This document shows, in pieces, positions 2,882 through 53,844 of a DNA stretch of 53,844 nucleotides. The stretch covers positions 1 through 53,844 of the forward strand of contig JAVCCS010000076.1 in NCBI GenBank assembly GCA_030765365.1. Reading direction: 5' to 3'. The translations under genes and the position numbers were made by a program. Position 1 is the stretch's first letter. Each line of letters begins with the position of its first letter. The DNA comes from Candidatus Theseobacter exili. GTDB lineage: Bacteria > Auribacterota > JACPWU01 > Theseobacterales > Theseobacteraceae. The notes below the pieces were generated by a model that saw only the letters and a program-made list of their open reading frames with translations, was not told where the DNA came from and did not search any database.

Positions 2882-2888
2882 CATAATT

Positions 2889-4475: not shown

Positions 4476-4490
4476 TAAAAGCAAACAAAT

Positions 4491-6590: not shown

Positions 6591-6607
6591 CAAAAAGAAG
6601 AGTTGAA

Positions 6608-8086: not shown

Positions 8087-8089
8087 CAA

Positions 8090-12554: not shown

Positions 12555-13784
12555 ATGTCTCACACCTGTAATTACAAACCAAAAATCGGGATCAGCGCCT
12601 GTCTTTTAGGAAAGCCGGTAAGATATGACGGTGGACACAAACTTAATCAATTTATAAAAACGAACCTTGAAAATCTTGTTGATTTTATTGGTGTATGTCC
12701 GGAAACGGAATGTGGTTTCGGTATTCCACGTGAACAGATCAGACTCGAAGGCAATCCAGAATCTCCTCGAATTGTCGGTAAAAAAACACACACAGATAAA
12801 ACAGAAAGACTTTCAGCATGGATACAAAAGAAAATAATGGAGCTTAAAACAGAAAACCTTAACGGATTTATATTTAAAAGCAAATCACCGAGCTGCGGGC
12901 TGTACAGTCTTCCTGTTTTTACCTGTAATGAAAAGTTTCAATCAACCGGAACAGGACTTTTTACCAAAGCGTTTATAAAAAAATTCCCGAACATACCTGC
13001 AGAAGAAGACAGTACTCTTAAGACAAAAACTCAATTAAATAAATTCCTGAAAAACGTTTTTCCCGCGATAAAATTTAATTATATGGAGAAAAAAATGAAT
13101 TTTCCCGACATTATAAATACTTTAAAATCCCATTCAAATCCGGAATCAATAAAAGGTATGGCACGGTTCGGAATTAATCCTGAAACTGCGTTAGGTGTTT
13201 CGATGCCGACACTTAGAAGTATTGCCAAAACAGCCGGGAAAAGCCATTCTCTTGCCGAAAAGTTATGGTCTTCAGGTATTCATGAAGCAACAATACTTGC
13301 AAGTATTGTTGATGATCCCAAAGAAGTTACTGAAAGCCAGTTGGAAAATTGGGCTCATGATTTCAATTCATGGGATATTTGCGACCAGTGCTGCATTAAT
13401 CTTTTTAGAAAAACTCCTTTTGCCTGGCCCAAAGCCATTGAATGGAGTCAGAGAAGTCCGGAATTTGTAAAAAGAGCCGGATTTGCACTTATGGCTACAC
13501 TTGCAGTTCATGATAAAAAAGCTACTGACAATCAATTCAATATTCTTTTTGAAGCGATAAAAAGAGAATCAACAGATGAAAGAAACTTTGTAAAAAAAGC
13601 CGTTAACTGGGCACTCAGACAAATCGGGAAACGCAATCTTTCTTTGAATGAAGCAGCAATCAGGGTTTCAAAAGAAATTCAGCTAACTAATTCCAAAAGC
13701 GCAAAATGGATTGCTTCCAATGCAATCAAGGAACTTACTGACCTAAAAGTACAAGATAGACTAGCAAATACAAAAAATTCATAA
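12555..13784 (+). CDS. Fusion protein: DUF523 (TudS-like, Cys-rich) N-terminal domain + DNA-alkylation-repair (AlkC/AlkD HEAT-like) C-terminal domain
   Basis: N-terminus GISACLLGKPVRYDGGHK, GVCPE and SPSCG resembles DUF523. From about aa 177 the sequence resembles the DNA_alkylation family (MARFGINPETALGVSMPTLRSIAK...LWSSGIHEATILA...WDICDQCC...NFVKKAVNWALRQIGKRN). No stop codon separates the two parts. Confidence 0.75.
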   Translation: MSHTCNYKPKIGISACLLGKPVRYDGGHKLNQFIKTNLENLVDFIGVCPETECGFGIPREQIRLEGNPESPRIVGKKTHTDKTERLSAWIQKKIMELKTENLNGFIFKSKSPSCGLYSLPVFTCNEKFQSTGTGLFTKAFIKKFPNIPAEEDSTLKTKTQLNKFLKNVFPAIKFNYMEKKMNFPDIINTLKSHSNPESIKGMARFGINPETALGVSMPTLRSIAKTAGKSHSLAEKLWSSGIHEATILASIVDDPKEVTESQLENWAHDFNSWDICDQCCINLFRKTPFAWPKAIEWSQRSPEFVKRAGFALMATLAVHDKKATDNQFNILFEAIKRESTDERNFVKKAVNWALRQIGKRNLSLNEAAIRVSKEIQLTNSKSAKWIASNAIKELTDLKVQDRLANTKNS

Positions 13785-30403: not shown

Positions 30404-31981
30404 TCAAGATTTTTTCCAGGAATAGTACGAAAGAGCATCTTCCAACCATTCATTTGAATTTCTGATGAGTCTTTCCCAATTTGATGCAAGAGAAAGGCCT
30501 CGTGCTGTATCAGCATTCCCTTCACATAACAAAGCAGAAGGAGCAGCTAAATCAATTTGCACTCTTACAGGAACCCTGCAGCGTTCTTCTTCAGGAAGAC
30601 TCTCAAGCAATTGAACCATTGCCTTTGCACCGCTGGACAAAGCACGAAACAATTGAGCTTCACCGCCTATCGCATTAACCATTAACTTATTTATCGGAAC
30701 TAGTCTAACAATTTCCAGAGCACCTGTTTGCTTGTTAGAAATATTGTCAGCTCCAACATACCCTATTCCATCAGGTGAAAATTCTATTTGAAAGATTCTT
30801 GAATATATTGTCTCAAGTATAATTCCTTCTGTTGAAAGCCTGTAATGAGCCCTTAATCCCCATGTTCCGAATTCAATTTGACGGTTTACAATAGGATGAT
30901 ATCTTTTCTGAAATTTGTTTTCAAAATCACAAACGGCATTAACGATAGTTTGCGCTGTTTCAGCACGGGTCTTAGCCTCTTTTCCCATTGCTTCATGCTG
31001 TTTTTCCCCGGATACACCTAAATATGCTTTCATTGTTTCTTCTCGTGAACTCAATCCCATTTCTTTCTGCATTTGTTCAATGTTTAATTTTAAATAAGTA
31101 TCCCGGGTTGATTCCTCCGTTTTAAAAAGGTCATAGATCCAAAGTAGTTCTCTTATTACATGCGGATTATCTGCGTCAAAATCAATAAAGCTGGGATGAG
31201 CGACTGAAGATTTTTCTGAAACCTTTGACATATCCGGCAACAGATAATCATCACCGTGTTTGAGTATTCTGAAACCTCCGAGTCCTCCTCCGCCTTCAGC
31301 CGGTTTAATAAAAAATTTCTTAATCCCCAGCTGACATTCCATATCATCCACCGCTGCCATGATCCTTTCAACTACCTCTTCCACCGAATCATCACCAACA
31401 TGAACCGCGTAAAAATGTGCAACAAGATCCCATTCAGAAGAATTTTTCGAAAGAAGATCGTACGTTCTGGCTTTATCTGAAAATACACTTCCCGGAGCAG
31501 TCAATTTACCCGGCACTACTACAGCACCATTTTCTTCTATTACATTACAAAGGGACAAATCATATGCTCTCTTGTCAACACACTGACTAAACACAAGGGT
31601 ATCATGTGCATTTCCATCAAGAGCCTTTAGCAGTTCATCTCTTTCATTAACTACAACTATCGGAATTTGCACTCCTTTTTTATCTAAACTGGTTTTGAAA
31701 ATCCGCATGGATTCATGAGAAAGAGGCAGGCTGTCGTTAGATGCATCAATTATTACTATTTTATCAGGAGAAACTTCACACTCTTCTCTATTTAATCTAA
31801 ATGCATTGAATTCAGTGTTTATCTTCAAATGTTTATTGAATTGATCAATAAGCTTCCCGTTATATTCTGCTTCAAGTCCATCAAATTTCTTTGCAGCAAT
31901 AAAAAATGGCGCTGACGTTTCTGGAACTGTCGGTGTCTTGCCCTGATAAGCTGACGCATCTCTTTTTAAAGTGTCTTTCAT
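30404..31981 (-). CDS. Divergent ATP-grasp-like ligase (525 aa) with a large insertion
   Basis: FFIKPAEGGGGLGGFRI (ATP-binding Lys strand) and VRVQIDLAAPSALLCEGNAD (a D...E-x-N metal triad-like motif), separated by about 230 aa of unrecognised sequence. N-terminus has DK-containing pre-grasp-like VVVPGKLTAPGSVFSDKARTYDLL. Confidence 0.5.
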   Translation of the reverse strand: MKDTLKRDASAYQGKTPTVPETSAPFFIAAKKFDGLEAEYNGKLIDQFNKHLKINTEFNAFRLNREECEVSPDKIVIIDASNDSLPLSHESMRIFKTSLDKKGVQIPIVVVNERDELLKALDGNAHDTLVFSQCVDKRAYDLSLCNVIEENGAVVVPGKLTAPGSVFSDKARTYDLLSKNSSEWDLVAHFYAVHVGDDSVEEVVERIMAAVDDMECQLGIKKFFIKPAEGGGGLGGFRILKHGDDYLLPDMSKVSEKSSVAHPSFIDFDADNPHVIRELLWIYDLFKTEESTRDTYLKLNIEQMQKEMGLSSREETMKAYLGVSGEKQHEAMGKEAKTRAETAQTIVNAVCDFENKFQKRYHPIVNRQIEFGTWGLRAHYRLSTEGIILETIYSRIFQIEFSPDGIGYVGADNISNKQTGALEIVRLVPINKLMVNAIGGEAQLFRALSSGAKAMVQLLESLPEEERCRVPVRVQIDLAAPSALLCEGNADTARGLSLASNWERLIRNSNEWLEDALSYYSWKKS

Positions 31982-32040
31982 TTTTTTCTATCCTGACAAT
32001 TTGTTTAACATAAAAAATATCATATATTTATTTGGACAGG

Positions 32041-33492
32041 TTACAAACCTGTATGCCCAAATTCACAAGGCACAGCAGACATTGAATCAGCTGGAACCAG
32101 TTTCAGTTTATCATATAAAAATTTTGCTATTTTTTCAGATTCAGCATTAAGATTTATTAAATCAGGCCCAAGAACACTGCCCCATCTCTGCATTTTTAAT
32201 ACAGGCGCACCGGATTCAACACTCATACCTTGTGGCATTCCTCCGGCAACAACAATTTCGTTTTCTGCAACGCTGTCAGTTAATGTTACATCATCTCTTA
32301 TAAATTCAATCTCACTATCTTTAACTCTATAAACTCCAGATTTTACATGGCCCGTAGCAACACAGGTTTCCTTATGCAGGTTGTGAAGGATCAGTTGAGA
32401 ACCGGATAAAACTACTTCCCTATTATTTTCATTGAGATAATCTTTTAATACATACTCATTTAAAAAACTATTTATATGATAAAAAACAATAGGAACCGCG
32501 CCCTCTTTTGTCTCGGCAAGTGTTTGCAACGGCGTTGAATTCTGGAAACGTGGATTAATTTCCAAAGGATAAGGTTTCCCTTCATGAACAATAAAATCGA
32601 TCCCGAATATTCCTTTATAACCATAATGCGCCATCATTTTACCTATAGTACGAGTGTATTCACGAACTTCATCAACAATTTTACTGTCCAGGAATCTAAC
32701 CGAAGTAAAATCATTTCCACAATAGATTGTTTCGCGCATGGCACAAGATTCAGGGCCAACAATCTGTAAAGAAGGCTGACTGACATGGACGGATATCTGG
32801 CCTTTATCATTAAATACTACTGCATTTATATTTAGAGAATATCCGTTAAGATATCGGGATAAAATTGCAGTCTTATCAATATTGCTTTTTTGAATTTTAT
32901 CCAGATCCTCCGATGTCTCAATAAAGAATGTATTCAACCCTGAAGACCCATAAGGAAACTGAACAACCGGCCTTCTGCCGAACTTTGCTACAATTTCGGG
33001 AAAGCGAATATTACCAAGTTCAGCTGTTTCTCCAGGTATTTTTGGAATGCCAAGTTTCTTCAAAAGCCTTCGAAAAATAATTTTATTGTCAAAAAAATTC
33101 TTAATTCTTTCTGGAACAGCCACAATCAGAAAGTTTTTCTGTTTACTTACAAGATTTTCCAGTTCGCCAAAGGACCTATAGCAAAGAAAATATACAGGCT
33201 TCTTAAGTGTATCCAGGAAACTATAGAATCTCTGTCCTTCGACACCTGAAACAGACTGATCCAGGCTTTTATTGCTCCAGAACCTTCTGAATCCCAACAT
33301 CTTTTCAACAGAAAAAGGAGTAATATTGTTAGAAAATGCTGTAACTTCCGGTCCGGAATCACAACTGTAAATAAAGGAAAATGGTATTAAATGGCACATT
33401 GACACCCCATCGTGCGCCCTTTGTCCAAACCAGCCCCAGCTTCCTTCCGGAAGAATTTCAGGCCGTTCTTTTTGTGCTGTATTTGGATACAT
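32041..33492 (-). CDS. ATP-grasp domain ligase (483 aa), substrate unknown
   Basis: DNKIIFRRLLKKLGIPKIPG, VVQFPYGSSGLNTFFI and GYKGIFGIDFIVHEGKPYPLEINPRFQNS (the classical ExN motif). GGAGAA RBS lies inside the upstream gene, with a 1-nt TAATG overlap. Confidence 0.8.
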   Translation of the reverse strand: MYPNTAQKERPEILPEGSWGWFGQRAHDGVSMCHLIPFSFIYSCDSGPEVTAFSNNITPFSVEKMLGFRRFWSNKSLDQSVSGVEGQRFYSFLDTLKKPVYFLCYRSFGELENLVSKQKNFLIVAVPERIKNFFDNKIIFRRLLKKLGIPKIPGETAELGNIRFPEIVAKFGRRPVVQFPYGSSGLNTFFIETSEDLDKIQKSNIDKTAILSRYLNGYSLNINAVVFNDKGQISVHVSQPSLQIVGPESCAMRETIYCGNDFTSVRFLDSKIVDEVREYTRTIGKMMAHYGYKGIFGIDFIVHEGKPYPLEINPRFQNSTPLQTLAETKEGAVPIVFYHINSFLNEYVLKDYLNENNREVVLSGSQLILHNLHKETCVATGHVKSGVYRVKDSEIEFIRDDVTLTDSVAENEIVVAGGMPQGMSVESGAPVLKMQRWGSVLGPDLINLNAESEKIAKFLYDKLKLVPADSMSAVPCEFGHTGL

Positions 33493-34601
33493 TATTTCTC
33501 CAATGTTAAAAAATCCGGAATATGATATGGATCTTCAATTATTCCTTCATCCAGCATTTTTTCGATTAAAATAATATCATTCAATGAAACCTTACCAACA
33601 TATAAAAGATTAATATTATTGCCATTCTGAACGAATTCCTTGATCTTTTTCCTTCCGCTAAGATAATGCACATCTTTTATTAATGCGCCAGGCCCGGAAG
33701 TATCAACCAGTCCTCTTTTTGTCCTTTCCACCAAACGATATGCTAACTGTTCAGGGAAATATTTATTCAGTTCCATATAAGTTTCATAGAAAGACAATTT
33801 CAATGATAACTCAACAGCCAGAGCACGCCCTGCATAAACCTTCTCCTGGGCACAATCTAAACAGGAACAAATATCCTCTGCATACACTGCCAAACCCTCT
33901 TCTGTTTCATTATACCCGGCAAAACCGGTCTGAAACATTTTAAATGGCTGCCTGCTTCCGTTTTCGCCTCTTAAAACATGCACCTGTATTTCATGAACCT
34001 TCAGCCTTTCAATTTCACTCGACATATAATTAAGATCCCGATTTACAATTACTTTTTTATGCCGTGGATCTATACGAACCTTTGAAGCTACATTTGATTC
34101 CAGAACAATCTTCCAGGGCAAAGATAAACGTTCCAATTCATTTTTTAAGGATTCAAACACTTCATGAGCTGAAACAGGTTCATTAAAATCTGCCATACTG
34201 GTATTTAAAAGTATCTTTCTGGCATCTTTGATGACCTCTTTATCACATACACCATGCAATTTCTCGGAAAAAACGCTGAAATTCCTGTCGTGCCTGAATT
34301 CCAGAAAATCAAGTTCAATTAAAAGCCTTTTCAACTGCTTGCTGTATAATTTTCCTAAAGCAGAATCATCAAAAGTAAATTCGGATAAAGACTTACGGAA
34401 AGAATCAAGTTCAGGACTAGTTTGATATATGTATTGTGGATTATATATTTTCCCGCTGCTGATATTATCTAAAAATAGTTTTCTCTCTTCAGGTCTGTTA
34501 ACTGGAAGTAAAACAGATGAAAAGTCTATTTTCCCCAGCATTTGCCTGACATAATTTTCAAAAATAATTATTTGTTCAAATACATTATTCATAAAATCCA
34601 T
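33492..34601 (-). CDS. DUF1704 / MATCAP-like metallo-carboxypeptidase family protein ('QEGLA motif' family)
   Basis: 369 aa. HEIQVH (HExxxH, nt 33978-33995) followed 26 residues later by ETEEGLAVYAE (the EEGLA part is at nt 33888-33902). This is the signature arrangement of the DUF1704 family. Confidence 0.75.
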   Translation of the reverse strand: MDFMNNVFEQIIIFENYVRQMLGKIDFSSVLLPVNRPEERKLFLDNISSGKIYNPQYIYQTSPELDSFRKSLSEFTFDDSALGKLYSKQLKRLLIELDFLEFRHDRNFSVFSEKLHGVCDKEVIKDARKILLNTSMADFNEPVSAHEVFESLKNELERLSLPWKIVLESNVASKVRIDPRHKKVIVNRDLNYMSSEIERLKVHEIQVHVLRGENGSRQPFKMFQTGFAGYNETEEGLAVYAEDICSCLDCAQEKVYAGRALAVELSLKLSFYETYMELNKYFPEQLAYRLVERTKRGLVDTSGPGALIKDVHYLSGRKKIKEFVQNGNNINLLYVGKVSLNDIILIEKMLDEGIIEDPYHIPDFLTLEK

Positions 34602-38178: not shown

Positions 38179-38313
38179 GATTCCGCAACCATTTTTCTGT
38201 TCACTGGTAAAAAAACTTAAACTTGCAGTAAAAATAAGTTATATTAATTACTAATACTGTAGCACTCATATAATAATCGTAAATGATAATATCTTCAAAG
38301 GAAGGTAATGCTA

Positions 38314-40737
38314 ATGAAAACGGCATATCTATTAACTACTCTTTTTGTATCACTAATAATTACCTGCCCCATATTGGCAGAGACTGTTGACAAAGGATCG
38401 GGAGAAAGCAAAAACAAAGCAACTATTGCTATTGTTCAGGATGGACAATCACAACTTCTCAATGAGCAGAAAGCCAAAATCAAAAAGGAACTTAATGTTT
38501 TAGTTGACGATGATTTTGTCGTGATTTTTAAAGATATTCCTGACTTTAACGCCAACTGGAAATTAAACGAAATGGACAAGGTTCTGAATAATGCACTTAA
38601 CGATCCAGAAGTTGATTACATCATAACAATAGGTCCCCTGGTTACACATGCCGCTATTCATTATAAAGGAAAGTTGTCTAAACCTGTTATCGGCGGCGGC
38701 CTTTATGAAGATGTAGACGCGCTTGGCTTGCTTTACGATGATAAAGGACGCTCGTTGGTGCCAAACTTTACTTTCGTTGTTGTTCCCTTCCAGTTGACAA
38801 ATGACTTAAAAGTATTTAAATCATTAATACCTTTCAAAAAAGTCCATATTCTCGTTGATTCAGCATTTATTGAAGGTACTCCTGACACCGAAATGAATGA
38901 AGCTACAACCAGTATTGAAAAAAAATCCGGGGTCGAATTAGTTCTGGTACCAATGGATACAAAAGCCGATGATATCCTCGCACAACTGGATGATAAAATT
39001 GAAGCTGTTTATATCACTCCGCCTTTACGTATGAATACATCGGAATTCCAGAAACTTATAGCCGGAATCAATGTCAAAAAAATCCCGTCTTTTTCAATGA
39101 TGGGTATTGTAGATGTTGAAAAAGGTGTACTGGCCGGTCAGGCACCTATATTGGATAAGCGTCATGCCAGAAGGTCAGCGCTGAATATCCAGCAAATTTT
39201 GATGGGAACATCACCTAACGAACTTTCTGTTTTTATGCCAATCGATGAAAAGCTGACAATCAACGGGAAAACTGCTCACAAAATTGGTTTCAATCCTAAT
39301 TTTCAAACACTATTAAATGCTAATGTGCTTTATTGGGAAGATTTGCAATCGGGCAAGCTGCTAACAATGGAAAAATCAATACAAATTGCGTTAAAAAACA
39401 ATATAAACCTTGCAATAAAAAAATCTGCCCAGGAAAGTGCCCGACAGGACAAAAACATAGCTCTGAGCAGTATGTTTCCTCAATTAGATGGAAATACCAG
39501 GTATTACCAGGTTGATAAAGACAGGGCAGAAACATCCATGGGATTACAGCCTGAAAACCGGACTTCGGCAAGAATTTCAGTCAGCCAGATGGTTTTCAGC
39601 GATTCAATAATCAGTAATTTCCGCGCAACAGGTCAAACTTACCTTTCAAGTAAACTAGAAACAGAAACGCAGCGTCTGGATATTATTGAATCTGCCGCAA
39701 AATATTTCCTTTCATATTTGTCGTCTGAAGCTCTTCTAAAGATAGAAACCGACAACTTGAAACTTACTCAAAAGAATCTTGATCTAGCCAGACTACGAAA
39801 AAAAGTTGGAACTTCTGGACCAGAAGAGGTTTACAGGTGGGAAGCAGAAGAAGCCCAGCAAAAAAGCTCAGTTATTAATGCAGAGAAAAATGTTCAGCAA
39901 ACCAGAATAGCATTAAATCAGGTTCTTGGTATTGATCAAAACACTAAATGGACTCCTCAAAATATAATACTGGGTGAGAGAGAATACTATTTTCTGGATG
40001 ATCGTCTTAAAAATCTTGTCTACAACCAGGAACAATTGATTAACTTTGAAAATTTTTTAGTGAGTGCAGCTCTTGAAAATTCTCCTGAGATTCAGACTAT
40101 GAACCATGCAATAAAGGCACAGAAAGTACTGCTGGGTTTATCAAAACGCAGATTCATATTGCCGGACGTTTATGCCGGTTTCTCCTATGACCGAGAACTA
40201 AGTGAAAAGGTAATTGGGCCAACTCTTTCCGACCCGATATTTTCTACAGAGGAACCAGACCGCAACGAATGGATGGCTACACTATCAGCATCTCTCCCTC
40301 TTTTTGAAGGGGGCGGCCGTTTTTTTAAAGTTGCAAAAAACAAAGCTGATCTTGAAAAAACCATTGAAAAGAAAACTCAAGTTTCACAGCTTGTCGAGCA
40401 AAGAACACGCACGGCCGTTCTTTCAATAGGAAGTTCGTGGCCAAACATTCAGTTAAGCAGACAAGCCGCAGAAAGCGCCCATAAAAACCTGGATATTGTC
40501 CAGGACAAATATGCTCAGGGCACTGTCTCTATCCTGGATCTTCTGGATGCACAAAATCAATCTTTCAGCCAGGATCAGGCTGCTACAATTGCTGTATACA
40601 CATACATGGAAGATATCGTTGAACTTCAAAGATCTGCCTCCTGGTTTGAAATAGATAAAAATCCCGAAGAAAAAGAAATATTCTTAACTAATCTTGAGGC
40701 ATACTTTAATCAGCATACTGCCAAAAAGGGAGAATAA
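38314..40737 (+). CDS. TolC-family outer membrane factor with about 345-aa N-terminal periplasmic-binding-protein-like extension
   Basis: The C-terminal about 460 aa has the OEP double-repeat character (LTMEKSIQIALKNNINL.., LDLARLRKKVG, YAQGTVSILDLLDAQ). The N-terminal part after the signal peptide (ATIAIVQDG...VDYIITIGPL...KPVIGGG) resembles ABC_sub_bind-type domains; this is tentative. ATG 38314 is preferred because of the GGAAGG spacing. Confidence 0.75.
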   Translation: MKTAYLLTTLFVSLIITCPILAETVDKGSGESKNKATIAIVQDGQSQLLNEQKAKIKKELNVLVDDDFVVIFKDIPDFNANWKLNEMDKVLNNALNDPEVDYIITIGPLVTHAAIHYKGKLSKPVIGGGLYEDVDALGLLYDDKGRSLVPNFTFVVVPFQLTNDLKVFKSLIPFKKVHILVDSAFIEGTPDTEMNEATTSIEKKSGVELVLVPMDTKADDILAQLDDKIEAVYITPPLRMNTSEFQKLIAGINVKKIPSFSMMGIVDVEKGVLAGQAPILDKRHARRSALNIQQILMGTSPNELSVFMPIDEKLTINGKTAHKIGFNPNFQTLLNANVLYWEDLQSGKLLTMEKSIQIALKNNINLAIKKSAQESARQDKNIALSSMFPQLDGNTRYYQVDKDRAETSMGLQPENRTSARISVSQMVFSDSIISNFRATGQTYLSSKLETETQRLDIIESAAKYFLSYLSSEALLKIETDNLKLTQKNLDLARLRKKVGTSGPEEVYRWEAEEAQQKSSVINAEKNVQQTRIALNQVLGIDQNTKWTPQNIILGEREYYFLDDRLKNLVYNQEQLINFENFLVSAALENSPEIQTMNHAIKAQKVLLGLSKRRFILPDVYAGFSYDRELSEKVIGPTLSDPIFSTEEPDRNEWMATLSASLPLFEGGGRFFKVAKNKADLEKTIEKKTQVSQLVEQRTRTAVLSIGSSWPNIQLSRQAAESAHKNLDIVQDKYAQGTVSILDLLDAQNQSFSQDQAATIAVYTYMEDIVELQRSASWFEIDKNPEEKEIFLTNLEAYFNQHTAKKGE

Positions 40738-44978: not shown

Positions 44979-46346
44979 ATGAACATTTATGAAATAACGA
45001 CTGTCCCAGGTCCATACCGAAACATGTTCATATCAGAACAAATTAAATGGGTAAAAAGAAGTGTTTCTATACAATGTTTATTGATAATCGCAGTCTATAT
45101 AATATTTACTCCTCTTAATTTTGTTCTTGATCCTGACGAATTCAGAATAGCGGAAATCCCGTGGGGTCTTCTTTTAATAGCTGGAACACTCCTTGTCTTT
45201 TACTTTAACAGGATAACTAAAACTCTTTTTACAACAAAGGCCAGTGCATTTTTGTTTATAATTCTATTGTTAATCGTTGTAACAAAAACTTCTCTGCTTT
45301 ACAAAGAATACGGACCATTTATTTTCAGCATCTATGTATTGACCCTTTTTATGGTTTCGCTGGTTATTCCCTGGTCACCTTCTGAAGCGTTAGTTATTGC
45401 GGCACTACATTTTATAGCTTATGACATTTTCTACATATTTATGACTCATGCCGTCGTTTTAACTTTAAATATAAAACAGTTCATGGACGGCCTTATGCTT
45501 TTATTTTTCTCCACTATAATCTGTATCGTTGTCCGATCAAAGGAAACGCGCCGTAACATAGAAAAGTTTATTCTTCAAAAAGAAGTAGAATCACAAAACG
45601 AACAAATGAAAAGCGAACTAAAGCTGGCTCTTCGCATCCAAAAGACTCTAAACCCTGTTCCGTTGTATTCCAGGTACGTCGATGTTTATGCTCATTTTTT
45701 ACCTGCCAGCTTTCTAGGAGGAGACTACGCTCAATTTGTTTTTCTCAACCGCAATCAACTGCTTTTTATTATAAGCGATGTCACAGGACATGGAGTTGCA
45801 TCAGCTCTCCTTGTAAACAGGTTCCACGCAGAATTTCAGATACTCTCGCAAAACGCAACTGACCCCGGCCTGCTAATGAATCATCTAAACGCCTTTATTA
45901 AAAGAGACTTTGCGGGCACCTATATGTATTTGAGTTCCTTTTGTGGTATTCTTGATTTTTCCTCAGGAATCCTCAGATATTCAAATTATGGCCATCCATC
46001 CCAGTTCTTATATTGTTCTGCGGAAGAAAAAGTTATTGAACTGGAATCTCATACCAGTTTTCTCGGTTTGCCTTTTCATGACGGGCACCTGTACCAAAGT
46101 GAACAAACTATTCAGGCAGGAGACCGTCTCCTTCTGTTCACTGACGGTGTTATTGAAATCAGAGATCTTTTCGGACAGGAATACGGTTATGAACGTCTAA
46201 AAGGTTTTCTTAAACAAAATCACGCTATGAATGTGAAAGAATTTGATCAGGAACTGCTTGAACATTTGCGTGCTTATAAATCCGGTCCTTTTATGGATGA
46301 TATTTTTCTTGTAGACTTTAAAATCAAGGAAATTGAAAAATCCTGA
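44979..46346 (+). CDS. Membrane-anchored PP2C/SpoIIE-family phosphatase (RsbU-like)
   Basis: 455 aa. About 5-6 N-terminal TM segments, then LALRIQKTL, GGDYAQF, ISDVTGHGVASALL, LLLFTDGVIE and MDDIFLVDFK. Confidence 0.85.
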   Translation: MNIYEITTVPGPYRNMFISEQIKWVKRSVSIQCLLIIAVYIIFTPLNFVLDPDEFRIAEIPWGLLLIAGTLLVFYFNRITKTLFTTKASAFLFIILLLIVVTKTSLLYKEYGPFIFSIYVLTLFMVSLVIPWSPSEALVIAALHFIAYDIFYIFMTHAVVLTLNIKQFMDGLMLLFFSTIICIVVRSKETRRNIEKFILQKEVESQNEQMKSELKLALRIQKTLNPVPLYSRYVDVYAHFLPASFLGGDYAQFVFLNRNQLLFIISDVTGHGVASALLVNRFHAEFQILSQNATDPGLLMNHLNAFIKRDFAGTYMYLSSFCGILDFSSGILRYSNYGHPSQFLYCSAEEKVIELESHTSFLGLPFHDGHLYQSEQTIQAGDRLLLFTDGVIEIRDLFGQEYGYERLKGFLKQNHAMNVKEFDQELLEHLRAYKSGPFMDDIFLVDFKIKEIEKS

Positions 46347-46370
46347 ACTCAACCTGATTCAGCATTCTGT

Positions 46371-49300
46371 TTACGCCATTGCATCAATAGCTTTTTGTGC
46401 CCGTATATAAGAATCAATATCTTCTACTTTCTTATTATAAACAGGCGGTAAGAGAAACTTTTCCGGATCATTCAATATCTCTTCAATAGATAATCCGGCT
46501 AACGCTTCTTCTGAAATCTGGTCTGTTTCATAAAACTCACGTAATATTTGTCTAAGCAATTTAGAGGCTCTATCATCCAGAACAGCATCGTCTTTTCCTA
46601 CGCTTGCTATATATCCAGCCAGATCCATTGAAATATCAATATATCCAACCTGGCTTGCTGATAGCGGCAAAATGCTTGCTTTCTGTACTGAAGAAGGAGA
46701 TTTTCCTTCTTCTGAAAGAACAATTGCAATCTGATTGTTCTCAGGAAGCATTTTAAACCTTTTCCAATTGTTATTAAGTTGTTCCTGCGCAGTAGAAGAA
46801 AGGCCATGTATCTTCTTTCCGTCAAGAATAGCCAAACGGCTTATATTTTTCATAATAAACTGCGTTCTTTTCATTTCATCCATCCATTCAAGTAAACGAC
46901 CATCTACAACGACCGGCATTTCTTTATCAGTGCTATCTCTGAAATAATCAATACCTTCAAGAACACGTGACGCAGCTTCTTTTGAACTGCTAACAGTGGT
47001 TTTGCCATGTGACAAGTGACAATAAGTGCCTGTTGGCCCTTCCATATGTTCGGCTGAATAACCATCAGGTATTTCCCCTGTATTAAGAAGCGCCTCAACA
47101 CAGTTTCTTACAATAACTGTCAGCTCTTCAAACGAACTATTCCTTATGTTATCTATTAATACCCATTCAGCGTCTCCTGCCCGTTTACCAACCATCATAC
47201 TGATAACAGACATCGCATCTTCCAATATAGCTGAATCAGGCTCTGCGTTTTCACTATACATGCTGACATCACCACTAAGCAAATTGATTACAATAACTTC
47301 TGTCTCTGGCTTAAGAGCAAATAACTCCATAAGCTCCTTTGTAAGAAGGTCTGCCGCTTCCTTTAGTCTTTGTTCTTCCTGTTTCTTAATAACAGCTCCT
47401 GCAACTCCAATTAATCTTTTGCCAGAGAGTTGTGCCTCGGTTTTCATCCATTCCGCCAGTTCTTCAGCTACAGCATCTAAAACTGCTCCCTTCAATTTAC
47501 CAATCTCCACTCCACCTATCTGGACATACCATATTCCTCTTGAATCCAGCACGGCAGATGCCCTTTCAACAGCTTCGGCTACTTCAGCATGTCCAAACTG
47601 TTTCAGTATTTTTCTGGCTTCGGCTTTTGCTATAACCTTTTTTAATCTGCTGATCTCTTCGGCGCTAATACCAGCCTCTTTAACAACAACAGCAGAACTT
47701 CTGAAATCTTTAAGTCCTTTTTCCATCCTATAACGTTTGCGTTCCATTTCAATCTTAAGCAGAGTCTTCAAACAGTCCAGATTCTTCCCTTCTGAATCTA
47801 AAAGTTCTTCAAGCAATTCTTCTCCAATAAATACTGTTGATCCAAAAGATTCACCATAATGAGCATAGCTGCTTCCTTTCACAGAATCATCAGCTACAGC
47901 AACACAATTAGCTAAAACTGCTAAACGTGTTTCAGCAAACATCTTTCTGATAGACTCATCTTTCATTAAAAAACTATTAAAACGATCAGCCAGATCTTCA
48001 GAGTTAATCATTTCACCAAGTGTTTCAACAATGATATCTCCATCAAGAGATGTCCTTGTTCGCGGCAAATCAGATTCCATAACCGGCCTGATTATATCTC
48101 CTATATCTGTATTAGTTAGCTTTTCACGATCTGATGGTCCTGAAACCTGTCCATCAGCAGTCAAAGCAAAATTCCCACTTGGTTTTGTTTGACTAAATAT
48201 CGATTTGGCTTCATCAATAGCATCCAAAACCATTTTATTATCAACTCCAACTTCATCCAGTCTGGACTCCAATTCATCAATTATTCCACTAATACTCATT
48301 TTAATAGTAGCCTGATGCAGGGCAGTCATTTCTTCACTAGGCATATCGACACCTGGAGAAATTTCAGGTCCTTCCGGTACAGGGTTAATTGTAAGGTCTT
48401 CTATCTGCGCAAGGAATCGTTTCATATCATCCAGTAGATCCTGGATAGGAACAGGTTCCATCTTCACTTCAGAACCCACACCTTCCTCCGCATCAAATTC
48501 AGTATCCCCAAGATCTGCAACTGCATCTAATAACGCAGAATGTTCCTCAGGTGTAAAAAGGCCGCGTCCGGCAGATTCGATTTCAGTTACTGGTTGATCC
48601 TTTTTAGGCCTAACTCTATTGACATGTTCATAAATAAGCGCTTTCAGATTATCCGTATCATTGATATTTACATCAAATTGAGGTTCTGTTCCTATAATAT
48701 TCACTACAAACATACGTAATGCATTATTTAATAGCTCATCATCCTCAATTCCTGAAATTCGAAGCACTTTAATAAGATTATCAACCCACGCCTGTACAGA
48801 CTTTTCAAAAAATTCTTCGTGCTCATCGATTAGTTTATTAATAACATAAAAATCACCAAAATCCGTTCCGCGCCCAAGTATATCAACATTGATTATTGAA
48901 CCATGAGCAGCTTGCAATATACCTGTCTGCACTGCACTGAGAAATGTTTTTCCATAATTTGCAGAAAGCATAATAATATATTCTTCAGGAGTCATACCCA
49001 TCTCTGCAATAACTGAATTAAATAATTCTATATTTGGTTTTCCGTTTACATGAAAGAAACTTGCTAAACGCCTGTAATCGCTCACTGGAACACGCAAGCT
49101 CGCGTAATAAGAATCATCAAGATATAGTACACTTAACGACCAACGGCTCAAATCACCGCCAATTGTTAGTAAACTCTCTTCCCTTTGAAGTGAAAGACTT
49201 TCACCTGTGCTCATTCCAACCGGAGTGCCTCTTCCAAATTGATGTTCCCAGTCAAGGAACAAACCAGGTTTTCCTACAAACCCATCAAATACAGTGGAAG

Positions 49301-52300
49301 GAAACATATTATTGATATTATGTTCTTTATATGCTGGCGTACCAAGATTTTTAAATTCAATCCCATAAACATGATGTCGCTGAAGCGTTTCAGACTGAAG
49401 ATCATCACTGCTTCCAACGATTCTAATACCATTCCCATTTTTAATAGTTGCAATAGAATATGGAATAGGAAGCAGCATCGAACGCCCTGATATTCCTAAA
49501 AGAGGCATTTCAAAAGGACTTTCTCCATCTTCATCTACAACACGACGAAGACCGTACCTTTCATATACCTCCAAGTCTGTCAGAGGCCTGACATCTCGCG
49601 TTGTTAGCGCGTCTTCTTTTTTTACATAAAATGGACCTGCTGTAAAAACAAGAGAACCATCTTCGCCATCAATCAATTCTTTATATTCATCTGGCAATTC
49701 TACACCAGCAGGCATATTCCATGAAGCATTCGCCTTTACGTAAACATGCGCATTAACGGGCACAAATGCTGTTCCTTGCTGTAAATACTCAATCTCACCA
49801 GTATTTCTGTCAACCTGAATACTTGCAGCTTTATTTGACAAAGCGGTACTGACTTCTTTTGAAACCCGGTCTTTCAACTTTAATAATACTTTACTAGCTA
49901 TAACAGGAGAATAAACTGACTCAATATTTCTTACAATCCTTGTACAAACACCGCCGCTGTCAATTCTTGAAATGTTTTCTGGATTAGTAATTATTACTTC
50001 GTCTGCAGCACCCGATTGGACTGCTTCAACGGCTGCCTGAACCTTAGGAAGCATACTGCCGGCAGCAAAATGCCCTGCTTCAATATAACCTTTCATTTTT
50101 TCAGGAGTTGCAACAAGAACCTTCTGTTCCTTGACTGAATCTCCAAAATTTAGATAAACACATGGAACCGCTGTTGAAATAATAAGTCTTCTAGTCTTCA
50201 CTTTTCCGGGAGGGCCACGTTCGGTAAATTCTTTTGCTAGTTGTACGGTTGCAAGATCTTTATCGATAACAGCAGGCAGGGGTTCAAGTCTCCCAAACTG
50301 TTTATAAGTTTCATAATCCACAGGGATTCCTCCCCCACCAACGCAAATAACAATCTTTCCATCCTCTACATGTTGTTTAATTCTCTCCATTTCAACAATT
50401 TCAAGAGGGATAGGAGAAGCAACCCTGGGTCTTGTATCAGGACCTTCTGCTGGTTCTATTCCTATAGGTTTTGTCGGATTCTGAAAACCTGAATCATCAC
50501 CGTCTACTGCAACGTGCGTGGGAACAAATACGATCTGCTCACGATCTACACCAAGCTCTACCAAGGCTTCAATAATATCCTCGGCAATCCAGTCCTGAGT
50601 ATCACTCACAACGTCAGCAAGCTGAGCAAGAATTTCATCCGGAGTTTGCCCTGGTCTTTTCCTCCTCTCAAGCAACACTCCTACTTCAGGTCCATTCCCG
50701 TGAGTAATTACTCCGCCGTCCCTAATTGCAGGCAGAACCTTCCTGAGTGTTACCTTTATCTTTCTTTTCTGCTCTCCTCGAATACGGTCAAAATCCTCCG
50801 GATTTTTAGGATCGGCTTCACCAATATCTTCTCCGGAAAGAAGCGAATTTCCTCCTATCGAAATCCAGTTAACAGGCTTAACCGTTCCATTATTTGTTTT
50901 CTTCTGCACCTGATCTTCAAGTTCTTTAAGAAAAACAAATATATCCTTTGGATCAATAGCCGTTACGTTAGGCGATCCTCCTTTAGGAATAAGCCGCCCT
51001 ACCAGTTCCGGCGTAAGATCCTTTATATTAAGAGGTTCTGTAAGTTCTTCTGTATCAAGTAACTCAAACAATGCCTGTTCAAGAAAATCGCGTCCCTTTT
51101 CCTCTCCCAGATATTCAATAAAACTTTCATAAAACGCTCTCTTGAATTCTCTATCCAGCAACTTACTTTGTGCAGCCTCCATATCCCAATCAACATCCCA
51201 CGATCTTGGCATGTGCCCCCAAAGATGAAATATCATATTGCCAGGTGTCTTTAATTCAATTCGATCATCAACATCAAGAATTCTTGGTCCCCTTGTAGTT
51301 CTTTTTGCGTTTCTCCACTTTGCGTCAAGAGCTATTCGGCCATCACCGGTTGCCCATAAATGAATCCATGATTTAACAAATTCCTTTATTAATTCAGGTT
51401 CAATTTTATCTCTGAATATATCCTCATAGGTAGGACCTTCAATGAATTCATCAAACATGAAATTTCTGCCTCTTGCATAAAATTCCGGATAAATATCAGG
51501 ATCACGACTATTTATTCTCTCCTGATGATCGCTATACCCGCCAACATAATCCATATCTGTCTTTCCGGTTTTAGCAGCAATTTTAAGCTCTCCCTGTAGT
51601 GGTTCTTTCCCGGCAATCATGTTAACTCGTACTGAAAAAACCCTCTTTTGAGCGCCTTGAACTGTTTCTCTTGCAATAGAAACAGACTCAATGTCATCAA
51701 TATCTATATCCTTGTTCTTCAATATTTCCTGAACCGCCGTGGCGTCTGCATAAAATCTACTTCTATCTTCCCGTGAAACATCATTATCAAACAGCATCAA
51801 ATCACGTACAGCATTAGCCCGAACACCTGCGTCTGATTTCATTAATTCTCTATGTCTTTGAAGAGCTATATGCCCGGCAAGCCAGAGTAGCTGATGATAA
51901 AACCTTGACTCTGTATCCTTGTATTCTGTCCTCCAGTCCTCTAGACCATCCTGGACCTTAACAACCTTTTCAATTGCCTCAACAACTGCAGACTGCTCCT
52001 GTATCTCGTGGTTCATTTCGGAAGCAGCCTTTGCTGGACGGGTAATAGCTGAAAAATCAAGATATATCTGGGAACGCGACACACCATAATGAGCTCCTGG
52101 AAAATAATGCGGCGGACTACGTCCTGTTTTTTTCCTATAAAAATCTTTGAAATTTTTGTCCAGGTTCTGCACCAGTAACAAAACAGATCCATCGGACGGT
52201 TTCTGAAAAAGTTCAACCTCATTGATTGCATCTATTTGTACCTGAGTAAGAGCAGGCAGACTGCTTTCAATAACGCTACCGTCATCGTCCAGTAATTCAG

Positions 52301-53844
52301 TAGGAACATACTCTCCGTTCTCGTATCTCAGCGCCTGGAATCTGCCTTCATCTAAAATCAATCTTTGTAGAACGGAAGTATATAATGCATTTGCCACATC
52401 AACCATACCCCTTCTTTGTTCATTTAAAGAAAGTTTCTGTATTTCCTGCAACAATAATTCATCCATTCCACCTGGCTGAAGCTTGTCAATAACCGCATTT
52501 GCACCAATCTTACGCAATTTTCCTTCATCGCTGGCTGCACCTGCTGCCAAAACAACAATGTCTGGCTGGGGAATTGCAGAATTGCGAATCTCTGCAATCA
52601 AACGCCCGCCCTGCTTTTCTACAGCAGCCATTCCCTGTGTATCATTACCCATTTTCAAGTCAGTAACCACTAAATCAATCGGAGTTCCTCTATCAGCATT
52701 GTCCTGCAAAATTTTCATTGCTTCTGCATGATCTCTGGCCTGCAGTAACTGTTGTCCCGGAAACCTTTCCCTTAAAACACTATTCAAGTGCAATAAAATT
52801 TTCAGTTTATCATCAACATGCAAAATCCTCTGATATCCGGTTTCTGTTTCGGTTGCGGCTTCCCGTTCGGCACCATAAGTTTCTGTTAAAGTGGCACCTG
52901 GTGTTTCCGCTGTAATTCTCCTCTTCTTTTTTATAGCCAAAGCACAGGGCTGACCGGCAGATGTTTCAAATTCATGTATATCTTCAACCAGTCCAGAAAA
53001 AGGTTCACTTTCAAATATTTCACGAGCTTTTCCAATAGGAGAGGCCTCAAAAGTATTTATATTCAACTGTCCATCATAAAAAAAGACAAGAACACCGTCC
53101 TCAGCAACCAGATTTTCCAGTATATGTCTTAGAAAATACGTATAAGGCATTATTGCGTCTGCATCAGACGGGTGAAATCCCCTTCTAAGTGCAAAAAGCT
53201 CTATAAAAGGCCACATGTTATACATTATGACCCCTTTTGCCTTACCCTTTTTTCTGCTGATAAAATCAAGCTCATCATGCATCTTCTCGAGAAAAGCGTC
53301 GTCAAAGAAATCCCCATTGAAAAATAAAATCTTCGGAAGCTCCCTTGCATCTGTATAAACATTTTCAGGTTCCAATTCCAGCCTGTCAACATTGACAATG
53401 CGATAAGCATCGATATTAACCGGAAAAGATCCGGATCCCAGGTTAAGGTAATAATCATCGGGATTTCTTGTTTCCATTCCCAACTGATCCAAAAGTGAAG
53501 TCATGTTAATTGTAACCTGCGCTCTATATTCGGCTGGCTCCTCTTCCTGATTTATTGACAAGTTAATTGGATTAAACTGGTGCACCCTTGACCAATCAAT
53601 TGTTCTTGATGAAGTTTGCATTCTATTGACAAACGCATTCCAGTCTTCGCGATCTTCCTGCATCCGCATCCTGTTTTCTTCCTCAAGGCATTTTACATCA
53701 TCACCAAAATAGTCAGATGAAGCATTGTCAAGTTTTCCAACAAAAGCTTTTCCCTCATCCGGAGCAGCAGTAAATGCGTCAATTATCCATCCGTCATCTG
53801 TCTGCACCCACACATGATATGCCGGAGCTCTGATATAATAAAAC
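46371..53844 (-). CDS. Giant multidomain protein (>2,480 aa; 5' end outside window): MTase-like, receiver, kinase-like, carbamate-kinase and SelO-like modules plus an unknown C-terminal region
   Basis: Single uninterrupted frame. The ORF-track 'M' at 53813 is a GTG, and the frame stays open to the window edge (..FYYIRAPAYH-VWVQTDDGW..), so the true start is probably upstream. Domain evidence is listed separately. Confidence 0.85.
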   Translation of the reverse strand, partial: FYYIRAPAYHVWVQTDDGWIIDAFTAAPDEGKAFVGKLDNASSDYFGDDVKCLEEENRMRMQEDREDWNAFVNRMQTSSRTIDWSRVHQFNPINLSINQEEEPAEYRAQVTINMTSLLDQLGMETRNPDDYYLNLGSGSFPVNIDAYRIVNVDRLELEPENVYTDARELPKILFFNGDFFDDAFLEKMHDELDFISRKKGKAKGVIMYNMWPFIELFALRRGFHPSDADAIMPYTYFLRHILENLVAEDGVLVFFYDGQLNINTFEASPIGKAREIFESEPFSGLVEDIHEFETSAGQPCALAIKKKRRITAETPGATLTETYGAEREAATETETGYQRILHVDDKLKILLHLNSVLRERFPGQQLLQARDHAEAMKILQDNADRGTPIDLVVTDLKMGNDTQGMAAVEKQGGRLIAEIRNSAIPQPDIVVLAAGAASDEGKLRKIGANAVIDKLQPGGMDELLLQEIQKLSLNEQRRGMVDVANALYTSVLQRLILDEGRFQALRYENGEYVPTELLDDDGSVIESSLPALTQVQIDAINEVELFQKPSDGSVLLLVQNLDKNFKDFYRKKTGRSPPHYFPGAHYGVSRSQIYLDFSAITRPAKAASEMNHEIQEQSAVVEAIEKVVKVQDGLEDWRTEYKDTESRFYHQLLWLAGHIALQRHRELMKSDAGVRANAVRDLMLFDNDVSREDRSRFYADATAVQEILKNKDIDIDDIESVSIARETVQGAQKRVFSVRVNMIAGKEPLQGELKIAAKTGKTDMDYVGGYSDHQERINSRDPDIYPEFYARGRNFMFDEFIEGPTYEDIFRDKIEPELIKEFVKSWIHLWATGDGRIALDAKWRNAKRTTRGPRILDVDDRIELKTPGNMIFHLWGHMPRSWDVDWDMEAAQSKLLDREFKRAFYESFIEYLGEEKGRDFLEQALFELLDTEELTEPLNIKDLTPELVGRLIPKGGSPNVTAIDPKDIFVFLKELEDQVQKKTNNGTVKPVNWISIGGNSLLSGEDIGEADPKNPEDFDRIRGEQKRKIKVTLRKVLPAIRDGGVITHGNGPEVGVLLERRKRPGQTPDEILAQLADVVSDTQDWIAEDIIEALVELGVDREQIVFVPTHVAVDGDDSGFQNPTKPIGIEPAEGPDTRPRVASPIPLEIVEMERIKQHVEDGKIVICVGGGGIPVDYETYKQFGRLEPLPAVIDKDLATVQLAKEFTERGPPGKVKTRRLIISTAVPCVYLNFGDSVKEQKVLVATPEKMKGYIEAGHFAAGSMLPKVQAAVEAVQSGAADEVIITNPENISRIDSGGVCTRIVRNIESVYSPVIASKVLLKLKDRVSKEVSTALSNKAASIQVDRNTGEIEYLQQGTAFVPVNAHVYVKANASWNMPAGVELPDEYKELIDGEDGSLVFTAGPFYVKKEDALTTRDVRPLTDLEVYERYGLRRVVDEDGESPFEMPLLGISGRSMLLPIPYSIATIKNGNGIRIVGSSDDLQSETLQRHHVYGIEFKNLGTPAYKEHNINNMFPSTVFDGFVGKPGLFLDWEHQFGRGTPVGMSTGESLSLQREESLLTIGGDLSRWSLSVLYLDDSYYASLRVPVSDYRRLASFFHVNGKPNIELFNSVIAEMGMTPEEYIIMLSANYGKTFLSAVQTGILQAAHGSIINVDILGRGTDFGDFYVINKLIDEHEEFFEKSVQAWVDNLIKVLRISGIEDDELLNNALRMFVVNIIGTEPQFDVNINDTDNLKALIYEHVNRVRPKKDQPVTEIESAGRGLFTPEEHSALLDAVADLGDTEFDAEEGVGSEVKMEPVPIQDLLDDMKRFLAQIEDLTINPVPEGPEISPGVDMPSEEMTALHQATIKMSISGIIDELESRLDEVGVDNKMVLDAIDEAKSIFSQTKPSGNFALTADGQVSGPSDREKLTNTDIGDIIRPVMESDLPRTRTSLDGDIIVETLGEMINSEDLADRFNSFLMKDESIRKMFAETRLAVLANCVAVADDSVKGSSYAHYGESFGSTVFIGEELLEELLDSEGKNLDCLKTLLKIEMERKRYRMEKGLKDFRSSAVVVKEAGISAEEISRLKKVIAKAEARKILKQFGHAEVAEAVERASAVLDSRGIWYVQIGGVEIGKLKGAVLDAVAEELAEWMKTEAQLSGKRLIGVAGAVIKKQEEQRLKEAADLLTKELMELFALKPETEVIVINLLSGDVSMYSENAEPDSAILEDAMSVISMMVGKRAGDAEWVLIDNIRNSSFEELTVIVRNCVEALLNTGEIPDGYSAEHMEGPTGTYCHLSHGKTTVSSSKEAASRVLEGIDYFRDSTDKEMPVVVDGRLLEWMDEMKRTQFIMKNISRLAILDGKKIHGLSSTAQEQLNNNWKRFKMLPENNQIAIVLSEEGKSPSSVQKASILPLSASQVGYIDISMDLAGYIASVGKDDAVLDDRASKLLRQILREFYETDQISEEALAGLSIEEILNDPEKFLLPPVYNKKVEDIDSYIRAQKAIDAMA
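48654..49376 (-). other. SelO/YdiU-like (protein-kinase-fold) module inside the giant protein (aa about 1480-1720)
   Basis: Three collinear blocks resemble SelO: IEFKNLGTPAYKE (compare LKGxGxTPYSR), SLRVPVSDYRRLASFFH (compare RVxxSxxRxGxFEH), and AAHGSIINVDILGRGTDFGDF (compare HGVMNTDNxSILGxTIDYGPF). The match was made by eye only. Confidence 0.4.
49926..50870 (-). other. Carbamate-kinase-type amino-acid-kinase module inside the giant protein (aa about 982-1296)
   Basis: Collinear with all carbamate kinase signature blocks that I recall: ISIGGNSLL, VITHGNGPEVG, FQNPTKPIG, VASPIPLEIVE, ICVGGGGIPV, AVIDKDLA, GHFAAGSMLPKVQAA and VIITNPENI. Confidence 0.8.
52476..52829 (-). other. Receiver (REC) domain inside the giant protein (aa about 329-446)
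   Basis: RILHVDDK.. (acidic pair), IDLVVTDLKM (phospho-acceptor Asp), IVVLAAG, and AVIDKLQ (conserved Lys). Confidence 0.75.

Follow-up and report, generated by a model that had tools for sequence, protein, structure and literature searches.

A carbamate kinase domain embedded in a very long protein

The contig JAVCCS010000076.1 of Candidatus Theseobacter exili (assembly GCA_030765365.1) carries a giant open reading frame (ORF) in the middle of which lies a carbamate kinase (CK) domain. The entire 53,844-nt contig was analyzed and is called the window below. The ORF runs from 46371 to 53813 on the minus strand and specifies 2480 residues from the first in-frame GTG. Zero stop codons occur in the 30 nt between this first start codon and the contig edge at 53844, and because the frame is open up to that edge the protein is possibly longer at its N-terminus. 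The predicted product is acidic (D+E 16.8%, K+R 11.3%) and soluble, none of its 2480 residues falling in a transmembrane (TM)-like segment. No internal repeats or duplication were found within it, and a PADLOC search for anti-phage defense functions returned zero matches for the protein. The elements on which the identification of the CK domain rests are as follows.

46371-53813, minus strand: giant ORF, 2480 residues from GTG, soluble and acidic product
49923-50867, minus strand: CK domain, aa 983-1297, with 14 of 14 checked catalytic and binding residues kept
50844-50855, minus strand: GGNS motif, aa 987-990
From 50688, minus strand: THGNGPEVG motif, from aa 1037
50460-50480, minus strand: NPTKPIG motif, aa 1112-1118
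Minus strand, aa 1133-1136: SPIP motif
Minus strand, aa 1159-1165: GGGGIPV motif
50256-50270, minus strand: VIDKD motif, aa 1182-1186, in which K1185 and D1186 are the counterparts of the catalytic residues K209 and D210 in the Enterococcus faecalis CK (efCK)
50043-50075, minus strand: GHFAAGSMLPK motif, aa 1247-1257, where H1248, S1253 and K1257 correspond to efCK H262, S267 and K271

A preliminary description of this DNA, made from the sequence alone, had reported seven CK signature blocks in order, forming a complete module about 980 residues into a giant protein and followed by more than 1,100 further residues. This description holds. The seven motifs follow one another in a single frame between aa 987 and 1257, the domain begins at residue 983, and 1183 residues of the giant protein lie downstream of it. 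Two corrections concern its placement: the feature is on the minus strand, and the N-terminus of the protein is perhaps incomplete.

The identity of the domain is supported by several models. The NCBIfam carbamate kinase models NF009007 and TIGR00746 (arcC) matched with E values of 9e-48 and 2.3e-47, respectively, and the TIGR00746 match spans model positions 23-308 of 309. Pfam AA_kinase matched the same region (E 5.5e-9), and the sequences of six solved CKs, including 1b7b, 1e19, 8crv and 3kzf, matched at E values from 5e-30 to 2e-22, with efCK at 5e-30. Residues 983-1297 are thus a full carbamate kinase domain.

To map the active site, the domain was aligned to efCK with HMMER, the chain numbering of that structure being the same as the numbering in the literature, and to 56 canonical CKs with MAFFT. 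The roles of the residues in catalysis and ligand binding were taken from structural work on efCK, in which H262, S267 and K271 contact the nucleotide and its beta-phosphate (PMC3659122). Both phosphate-binding loops are kept, with G988/N989 at the positions of efCK G11/N12 and H1038-G1041 as the HGNG loop (the G50-G52 region), and K128, R158 and T229 are conserved as K1115, R1128 and T1214. Together with K1185, D1186, H1248, S1253 and K1257 listed above, the alignment to ArcC-type enzymes therefore leaves the catalytic Lys and Asp residues intact, and their substitution, which the preliminary description named as an outcome that would refute it, is not seen. All 14 key residues are present in the window domain, and 13 of the 14 are present in all four sequences of the subfamily defined below, the odd one being H262, which is replaced by E in the stand-alone form. 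As this catalytic set is kept although the members share only 48-53% identity, the sequence comparison suggests a working enzyme, and the segment at aa 983-1297 is probably a catalytically competent CK-type phosphotransferase.

Continuity of the reading frame

The reading frame is unbroken across 7.4 kb, and neither a start nor a stop codon is found at either boundary of the CK domain. The G+C content at third codon positions (GC3) is 0.29 in the CK segment and 0.24-0.32 in its flanks. A recent horizontal insertion of the CK segment was considered and is ruled out, as its GC3 lies inside the range of the flanks.

Independent support came from Logan contigs of three salt-lake metagenomes, which contain pieces within and around the CK domain at 100% identity. 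The N-side boundary of the domain is covered by such independent contigs, again at 100% identity, and no conflicting joints or loose ends were seen in the Logan contigs over the CK domain and its surroundings. The region 46000-53844 of the window is found at 100% identity, at a depth of only ~2-3x, in three salt-lake metagenome runs, and a variant of 90-95% identity is present in a marine metagenome run.

A distinct carbamate kinase subfamily with a shortened protruding subdomain

The CK domain differs from canonical CKs at defined places, the first of which is the protruding subdomain.

50418-50459, minus strand: shortened protruding-subdomain segment, aa 1119-1132 (IEPAEGPDTRPRVA), 14 residues, which keeps R1128 (efCK R158)

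The solved CK structures show this auxiliary subdomain closing over the site of carbamoyl phosphate, to which it supplies K128 and R158 (PMC3659122). The segment between KPIG and SP measures 31-33 residues in the 56 canonical CKs but only 14-20 in the four members of the subfamily. The equivalents of K128 and R158 survive in the window domain while the surrounding hairpin is gone, and the subfamily no longer has the Trp and the first Arg of the canonical GRGWRR motif. Two insertions accompany this deletion: the spacer between GGN and HGNGP is 48 residues long instead of 38 (an insertion of ~10 residues), and the spacer between D210 and T229 is 23-28 residues long instead of 18 (~9 residues inserted after VIDKD). 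The subfamily also reads HGNGPE where canonical enzymes read HGNGPQ. Identity is 48-53% inside the subfamily and 38-42% to canonical CKs.

The relatives of the domain were ranked among 8000 scored candidates, all with E values of 1e-10 or below. In the best 120, the closest is P0003 (E 3e-73), annotated as 'hypothetical protein KJ915_08265' of a Ca. Omnitrophica metagenome-assembled genome (MAG). This protein of 430 residues is 47-50% identical to the window CK, carries N- and C-terminal tails of ~60 and ~50 residues, and is encoded next to radical-SAM and LexA genes. The other 119 are ordinary CKs of 311-328 residues with E values of ~1e-40, so that an internal CK is not a common trait of an annotated family, the second outcome by which the preliminary description could have been refuted.

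A scan of metagenomes with a two-sequence alignment of the subfamily yielded three close loci, L012, L013 and L014. L014 is a stand-alone gene (430/447 aa) identical to P0003 and with the same neighbors. L012, which is part of contig Ga0208902_1000070, and L013 match each other at 100% identity over 12.9 kb despite their origin in two separate metagenome datasets, and both contain a second giant ORF.

L012 29-12931 (= L013): second giant ORF, at least 4309 residues, open at the locus edge

Within this ORF, a CK of the subfamily occupies about aa 3325-3647. It is 52% identical to the window CK, has all key residues and is placed between hydrophobic stretches of its host protein, which contains nine or more TM-like segments as well as a UDPGP domain. 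Beyond the CK domain, this ORF and the window protein have nothing in common. The remaining matches of the scan were 27-36% identical and were either of ordinary CK size (~255-430 residues where complete) or fragments on short contigs. A viral origin was also considered and rejected: no relative of the CK subfamily was found in IMG/VR, and matches in BFVD for the fold of the domain that follows the CK were not significant.

The existence of a stand-alone form, and of in-frame copies inside two unrelated very long proteins, shows the CK subfamily to be a portable module. By these sequence comparisons, the subfamily is small, associated with Omnitrophota and distinct from ArcC, and it has been recruited into giant proteins at least twice independently. 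The preliminary description was correct in recognizing an ArcC-like module; it had missed the distinct subfamily, its stand-alone and second giant copies, the receiver-like domain that lies upstream in the window protein, and the fact that the probable host lineage, Omnitrophota, is already known for tiling enzymes along very long proteins.

The C-terminal neighbor of the carbamate kinase domain

Apart from the CK itself, only one portion of the giant protein has relatives, and it follows the CK directly. We refer to it as domain X.

48624-49922, minus strand: domain X, aa 1298-1730, immediately following the CK on its C-terminal side, with a predicted protein-kinase fold closest to YdiU/SelO

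Domain X has no Pfam match, and a profile search of PDB sequences with it was empty at E<=10. A word-indexed search with the whole protein recovered one relative and a search with a domain X profile recovered two, both results being nearly uninformative because of the 8000-candidate pre-filter. When all 1.84 billion representatives were searched exhaustively with HMMER, 27 domain X proteins with lengths of 190-5544 residues were recovered; 19 have E values of 1e-30 or lower, a number that includes the window protein and P0002. The relatives considered here are P0002, P0123-P0140 and L004-L011. Domain X is encoded in eight species-representative genomes, six of which are Omnitrophota MAGs and two of which are bins labelled Planctomycetia/Planctomycetales. 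For the CK domain as for domain X, the nearest relatives are found in Omnitrophota MAGs, and by these relatives the source, an uncultured salt-lake bacterium, would probably belong to Omnitrophota.

An AlphaFold2 (AF2) model of domain X built with 16 family members had a predicted local distance difference test score (pLDDT) of 90.9. The top Foldseek match of this model in the PDB was YdiU (9jyn; E 5.3e-7, probability 1.0), with a TM-score of only 0.31, a root-mean-square deviation of 10.6 and 13% sequence identity. The further PDB matches were exclusively protein and lipid kinases (Tyr and PI kinases). Among the invariant residues of domain X are E1486, K1488, H1498, R1581, R1582, D1644, D1651 and D1654, and the spacing N1642-x-D1644...D1654 mirrors that of N244, D246 and D256 in YdiU. 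These three residues were mutated in the study of YdiU, where the D256A variant was inactive. Domain X is hence predicted to be SelO/YdiU-like in fold, and it is not classed here as a member of that family.

The proteins that carry domain X are varied. A cytidylate kinase domain (Cytidylate_kin) lies upstream of it in P0002, P0125, P0126, P0129 and L008 (four paralogous long proteins), and GNAT, S-adenosylmethionine (SAM) methyltransferase, Dus, HATPase_c and GT9 modules also occur among the relatives. None of the other ~18 domain X proteins carries a CK, which again agrees with the view that the embedding is not a known family trait. A DOT1-like methyltransferase part of P0002 (aa 1540-1662) matches the PADLOC model mad2 of methylation-associated defense (9.6e-10); this is probably a generic methyltransferase similarity.

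Other regions of the giant protein and the genomic surroundings

The remainder of the giant protein consists of a receiver-like domain and three orphan regions.

52827-53813, minus strand: orphan N-terminal region, aa 1-329, with a 'LNLGSGS' stretch that resembles SAM methyltransferases by eye only
52482-52826, minus strand: receiver-like (Response_reg) domain, aa 330-444, scoring 25.0 bits against a Pfam cut-off of 30.2
50868-52481, minus strand: orphan region between the receiver-like domain and the CK, aa 445-982
46374-48623, minus strand: orphan C-terminal region, aa 1731-2480, 750 residues

By eye, the receiver-like domain shows the DD pair and an acceptor Asp in 'LVVTDLKM', and the position of the conserved Thr/Ser is apparently occupied by Ala. 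Matches of aa 330-444 to receivers in the PDB were weak (E 0.6-1.2). No hidden Markov model matched aa 1-329, and no significant match was obtained for aa 1731-2480. For aa 445-982, a metagenome scan found no relatives, Pfam and PDB searches were empty at E<=10, a local phmmer search against the domain X family was also empty, and hhalign gave a probability of 0.3 for similarity to domain X. The kinase-like motifs ELKIAAK, ALDAKWRN and ILDVDD seen by eye in this region are unverified and were not used as evidence. A putative second kinase-like domain in aa 445-982 stays unverified because the single-sequence AF2 model of aa 680-985 had a pLDDT of 40.7 and was unusable. A receiver-like domain, a CK and a kinase-fold domain are thus tiled on one polypeptide together with ~1600 orphan residues.

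The window is ordinary chromosome. It contains a polyphosphate cluster, histidine and tryptophan biosynthesis genes, a resistance-nodulation-division (RND) efflux system, an inverse autotransporter and a PP2C/SpoIIE phosphatase. The following genes were recorded as observations in their own right.

354-8605, plus strand: compact group of polyphosphate genes encoding a two-domain PPK2, a ROK-family kinase, a Ppx/GppA protein with an HD domain, PPK1, a CHAD protein that also has Ppx domain III, and a member of the histidine phosphatase family
12555-13784, plus strand: one ORF in which domains for 2-thiouracil desulfurase and for DNA alkylation repair are fused
30404-34601, minus strand: MATCAP-like gene (microtubule-associated tyrosine carboxypeptidase family) with an ATP-grasp gene and an orphan ORF of 525 aa as direct neighbors
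38308-40737, plus strand: 809-aa outer membrane efflux protein (OEP)/TolC-like gene, ahead of HlyD and AcrB genes
44979-46346, plus strand: SpoIIE/PP2C-type phosphatase gene, convergent with the stop codon of the giant gene across a 24-nt gap

The phosphatase could be a partner of the kinase-fold giant protein, with an orientation that is not operonic. The MATCAP-like and ATP-grasp genes may represent a bacterial peptide-ligase/carboxypeptidase pair. The N-terminal part of the 809-aa efflux protein resembles an ABC-transporter substrate-binding protein, and a similar ORF of 812 residues (30% identity) is present on the contig of the domain X relative P0002 (L001 21505-22695).

Possible roles of the embedded carbamate kinase

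Our tentative proposal is that the embedded CK is an active module of carbamoyl-phosphate/ADP phosphotransfer that serves the neighboring nucleotide-using domain, a coupling that we infer with less than even confidence. The enzyme would catalyze its ordinary reaction in cis (carbamoyl phosphate + ADP <-> carbamate + ATP), and the ATP made or kept charged in this way would pass to its neighbor, domain X, as the consumer of nucleotides. Such a helper role is suggested by the position of the CK, which directly precedes a nucleotide-using kinase-fold domain. It is also pointed to by the four paralogues that carry a cytidylate kinase before domain X and by the reported presence of pyruvate-phosphate dikinase (PPDK) and other phosphotransferase modules in giant Omnitrophota proteins. 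Local ATP generation had been raised in the preliminary description, and it now gains circumstantial support from two sides: the CK adjoins a nucleotide-using domain of kinase fold, and the matching region of relatives holds a cytidylate kinase.

Several observations weigh against this proposal. The CK domain scores 161.5 bits with the NCBIfam equivalog model, for which the cut-off is 358.25 bits, and 162.8 bits with the subfamily model, for which it is 266 bits. In the 53.8-kb window, genes for arginine deiminase, ornithine carbamoyltransferase and carbamoyl-phosphate synthetase were not found, nor were allantoin or oxamate genes or another source of carbamoyl phosphate, and P0003, the stand-alone homologue, is neither adjoined by a source of carbamoyl phosphate nor part of an arginine deiminase (ADI) operon. 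The substrate could differ from carbamate because the subdomain that closes the carbamate site is halved. On the side of domain X, the match of its model to YdiU comes with a low TM-score. Enzymes of the SelO/YdiU type release pyrophosphate rather than ADP, so that direct ADP recycling for domain X is not obviously needed. The majority of domain X proteins are without any kinase module, and the other embedded CK, in the L012/L013 ORF, is without domain X. Among the domain X proteins the pairing with a CK occurs only in the window protein. Finally, the segment 49657-50104, which holds the junction between the CK and domain X, lies outside the coverage by public contigs, and no RNA run contains the locus of the giant ORF.

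Some of these points would fit an enzyme with a changed substrate, which we regard as possible but unlikely. Amino-acid-kinase chemistry would then be preserved, with the gamma-phosphate of ATP transferred, via an open pocket, to a carboxylate- or carbamate-type oxygen of something larger than carbamate. Such an acceptor could be a metabolite, or else a macromolecule or a tethered partner that bears a carboxylate or carbamate group. The halved subdomain, which had closed over the carbamoyl-phosphate site in the solved enzymes, the loss of the Trp and first Arg of GRGWRR, the score under the arcC equivalog cut-off and the fact that the subfamily was never beside ADI-pathway genes in the loci examined are all consistent with this idea. 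Phosphorylation of an acceptor other than carbamate, the second option of the preliminary description, which spoke of a tethered substrate, thus gains some support from the halving of the pocket-closing subdomain. However, K128 and R158, the contributions of the auxiliary domain to the carbamoyl-phosphate site, are both kept, and no candidate acceptor was identified.

The CK reaction is reversible, and CK-like enzymes act as carbamoyl-phosphate synthetases in some archaea. The domain might accordingly work in the ATP-consuming direction and produce carbamoyl phosphate, for carbamoylation by an unrecognized domain or as a phosphodonor for the receiver, although we find this rather doubtful. It is favored by these archaeal synthetases and by the presence of 1e19 among the matches of the CK domain, by the receiver-like domain with its acceptor Asp at aa 330-444, and by the precedent of Campylobacter jejuni, where carbamoyl phosphate is an in vivo phosphodonor for the response regulator BumR (PMC12469816). 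Against it, no carbamoyltransferase domain was detected in the giant protein, the receiver match is under the Pfam threshold, and no receiver was detected in the stand-alone copy or in the 4,300 scanned residues of the other giant ORF. An elaboration of the same direction, which we consider improbable, is that the giant protein is a self-contained signaling device without a histidine kinase. Carbamate arises spontaneously from CO2 and NH3, and it would perhaps be plentiful if the source salt lake is rich in carbonate and ammonia. The trimmed CK would turn ATP and carbamate into carbamoyl phosphate. This donor, released locally or passed on directly through the opened pocket, would phosphorylate the receiver-like domain, which lies 540 residues upstream, at its acceptor Asp, and phosphorylation of the receiver would switch the SelO/YdiU-like, protein-modifying domain. 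Non-catalytic use is also unlikely: as CKs are homodimers, the embedded CK could dimerize the giant protein and act as a scaffold, or it could be a sensor of nucleotide or carbamoyl phosphate in a regulatory protein, as many kinase-like domains of multi-domain proteins are sensors, but the retention of catalytic residues among members that have diverged to 48-53% identity indicates selection for catalysis and not for binding alone. As for an artefact, in which a chimeric assembly or a missed stop codon or frameshift had joined a stand-alone CK gene to its neighbors, the low depth of the source organism in public runs, the uncovered junction between the CK and domain X, and the fact that the giant protein forms a singleton cluster would speak for it. 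The unbroken frame, the domain boundaries free of start and stop codons, the GC3 continuous with the flanks and the clean contigs over the N-side boundary argue against it, as does the second embedded copy of the same subfamily (L012/L013), assembled identically from two metagenomes, and we consider such an error very improbable. The structural or sensor role and the artefact are less likely than the other rivals.

Relation to known systems

Carbamate kinase is usually viewed as a stand-alone, catabolic, ATP-yielding enzyme. The window CK resembles ArcC (E. faecalis 1B7B/2WE5, Pyrococcus furiosus 1E19, Giardia 3KZF; TIGR00746) over the full length of the domain, with 38-42% identity, the GGN and HGNGP phosphate-binding loops and the efCK residues from K128 to K271 discussed above (K128, R158, K209, D210, T229, H262, S267 and K271). 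In contrast, ArcC is a stand-alone homodimer of ~310 residues, whereas the window CK starts at residue 983 inside a polypeptide of 2480 or more residues, has a protruding segment of 14 residues, two insertions and HGNGPE, scores 161 against 358 bits, and has no ADI-pathway genes nearby in the 53.8-kb window. P0003 belongs to the same subfamily and has all three indel signatures in common with the window CK, but it is a separate gene with tails and has E for H262. The L012/L013 ORF likewise holds a subfamily CK in frame deep inside a very long protein; that host is unrelated, with at least nine TM-like segments and UDPGP and no domain X.

Amino acid kinase (AAK)-fold domains are known in fusions such as aspartokinase-homoserine dehydrogenase, P5C synthase and NAGK-NAGS, in which the AAK domain is joined to the enzyme that uses its product. 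These are two-domain pathway fusions with a known hand-over of acyl phosphate, unlike the window protein, where the partners of the CK are a kinase-fold domain and orphan regions with no evident pathway. Domain X shares with the AMPylating/UMPylating pseudokinases SelO/YdiU a predicted protein-kinase-like fold and the Asn-x-Asp...Asp(+10) spacing, and differs from them in that it has no Pfam or PDB sequence match, with a TM-score of only 0.31 and a sequence identity of 13% to YdiU.

A precedent for the architecture comes from Omnitrophota, whose very long proteins are already known to tile unrelated enzymes along one polypeptide (bioRxiv 10.1101/2023.11.21.568195; 10.64898/2026.06.07.730766; PMC10066038). 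PPDK domains and a 'kinase/phosphotransferase cluster' have been described in these giant proteins (bioRxiv 10.1101/2023.11.21.568195; 10.64898/2026.06.07.730766). The window protein is similar to their 'Archaeovorins'/'multi-enzyme metabolic cluster' in that unrelated enzyme domains follow one another, and the modules of the Omnitrophota long proteins comprise methyltransferase, GNAT, HATPase, receiver and kinase/phosphotransferase domains, with PPDK as an ATP-linked module. Those proteins are mostly far longer (genes above 20 kb, products of up to 147,155 residues) and often membrane-anchored, whereas the window protein is predicted to be soluble and has 2.5 thousand residues. Neither carbamate kinase nor cytidylate kinase is mentioned in the texts of bioRxiv 10.1101/2023.11.21.568195 and 10.64898/2026.06.07.730766, and the supplementary text of the latter has no mention of PF00696 or PF02224. 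Three features are new: a CK subfamily whose protruding subdomain is truncated, the uptake of this subfamily into giant proteins, and its position beside an undescribed, SelO/YdiU-like domain family.

A trimmed CK subfamily with an intact active site is thus found in very long proteins of a poorly understood, mostly uncultured phylum. Its shortened protruding subdomain is a natural experiment on the substrate selectivity of CKs, and domain X, with ~430 residues, is an undescribed kinase-fold family worth defining. If the phosphodonor scheme were true, receivers would have a new kind of input logic, in which a small-molecule phosphodonor is produced in cis by a module dedicated to that task. 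If instead, as in our preferred reading, the CK feeds the neighboring domain, or if it supplies carbamoyl phosphate in cis, one polypeptide would hold a natural, built-in system of cofactor regeneration, and this in-cis feeding would give an assayable handle on the role of the enigmatic long proteins of Omnitrophota.

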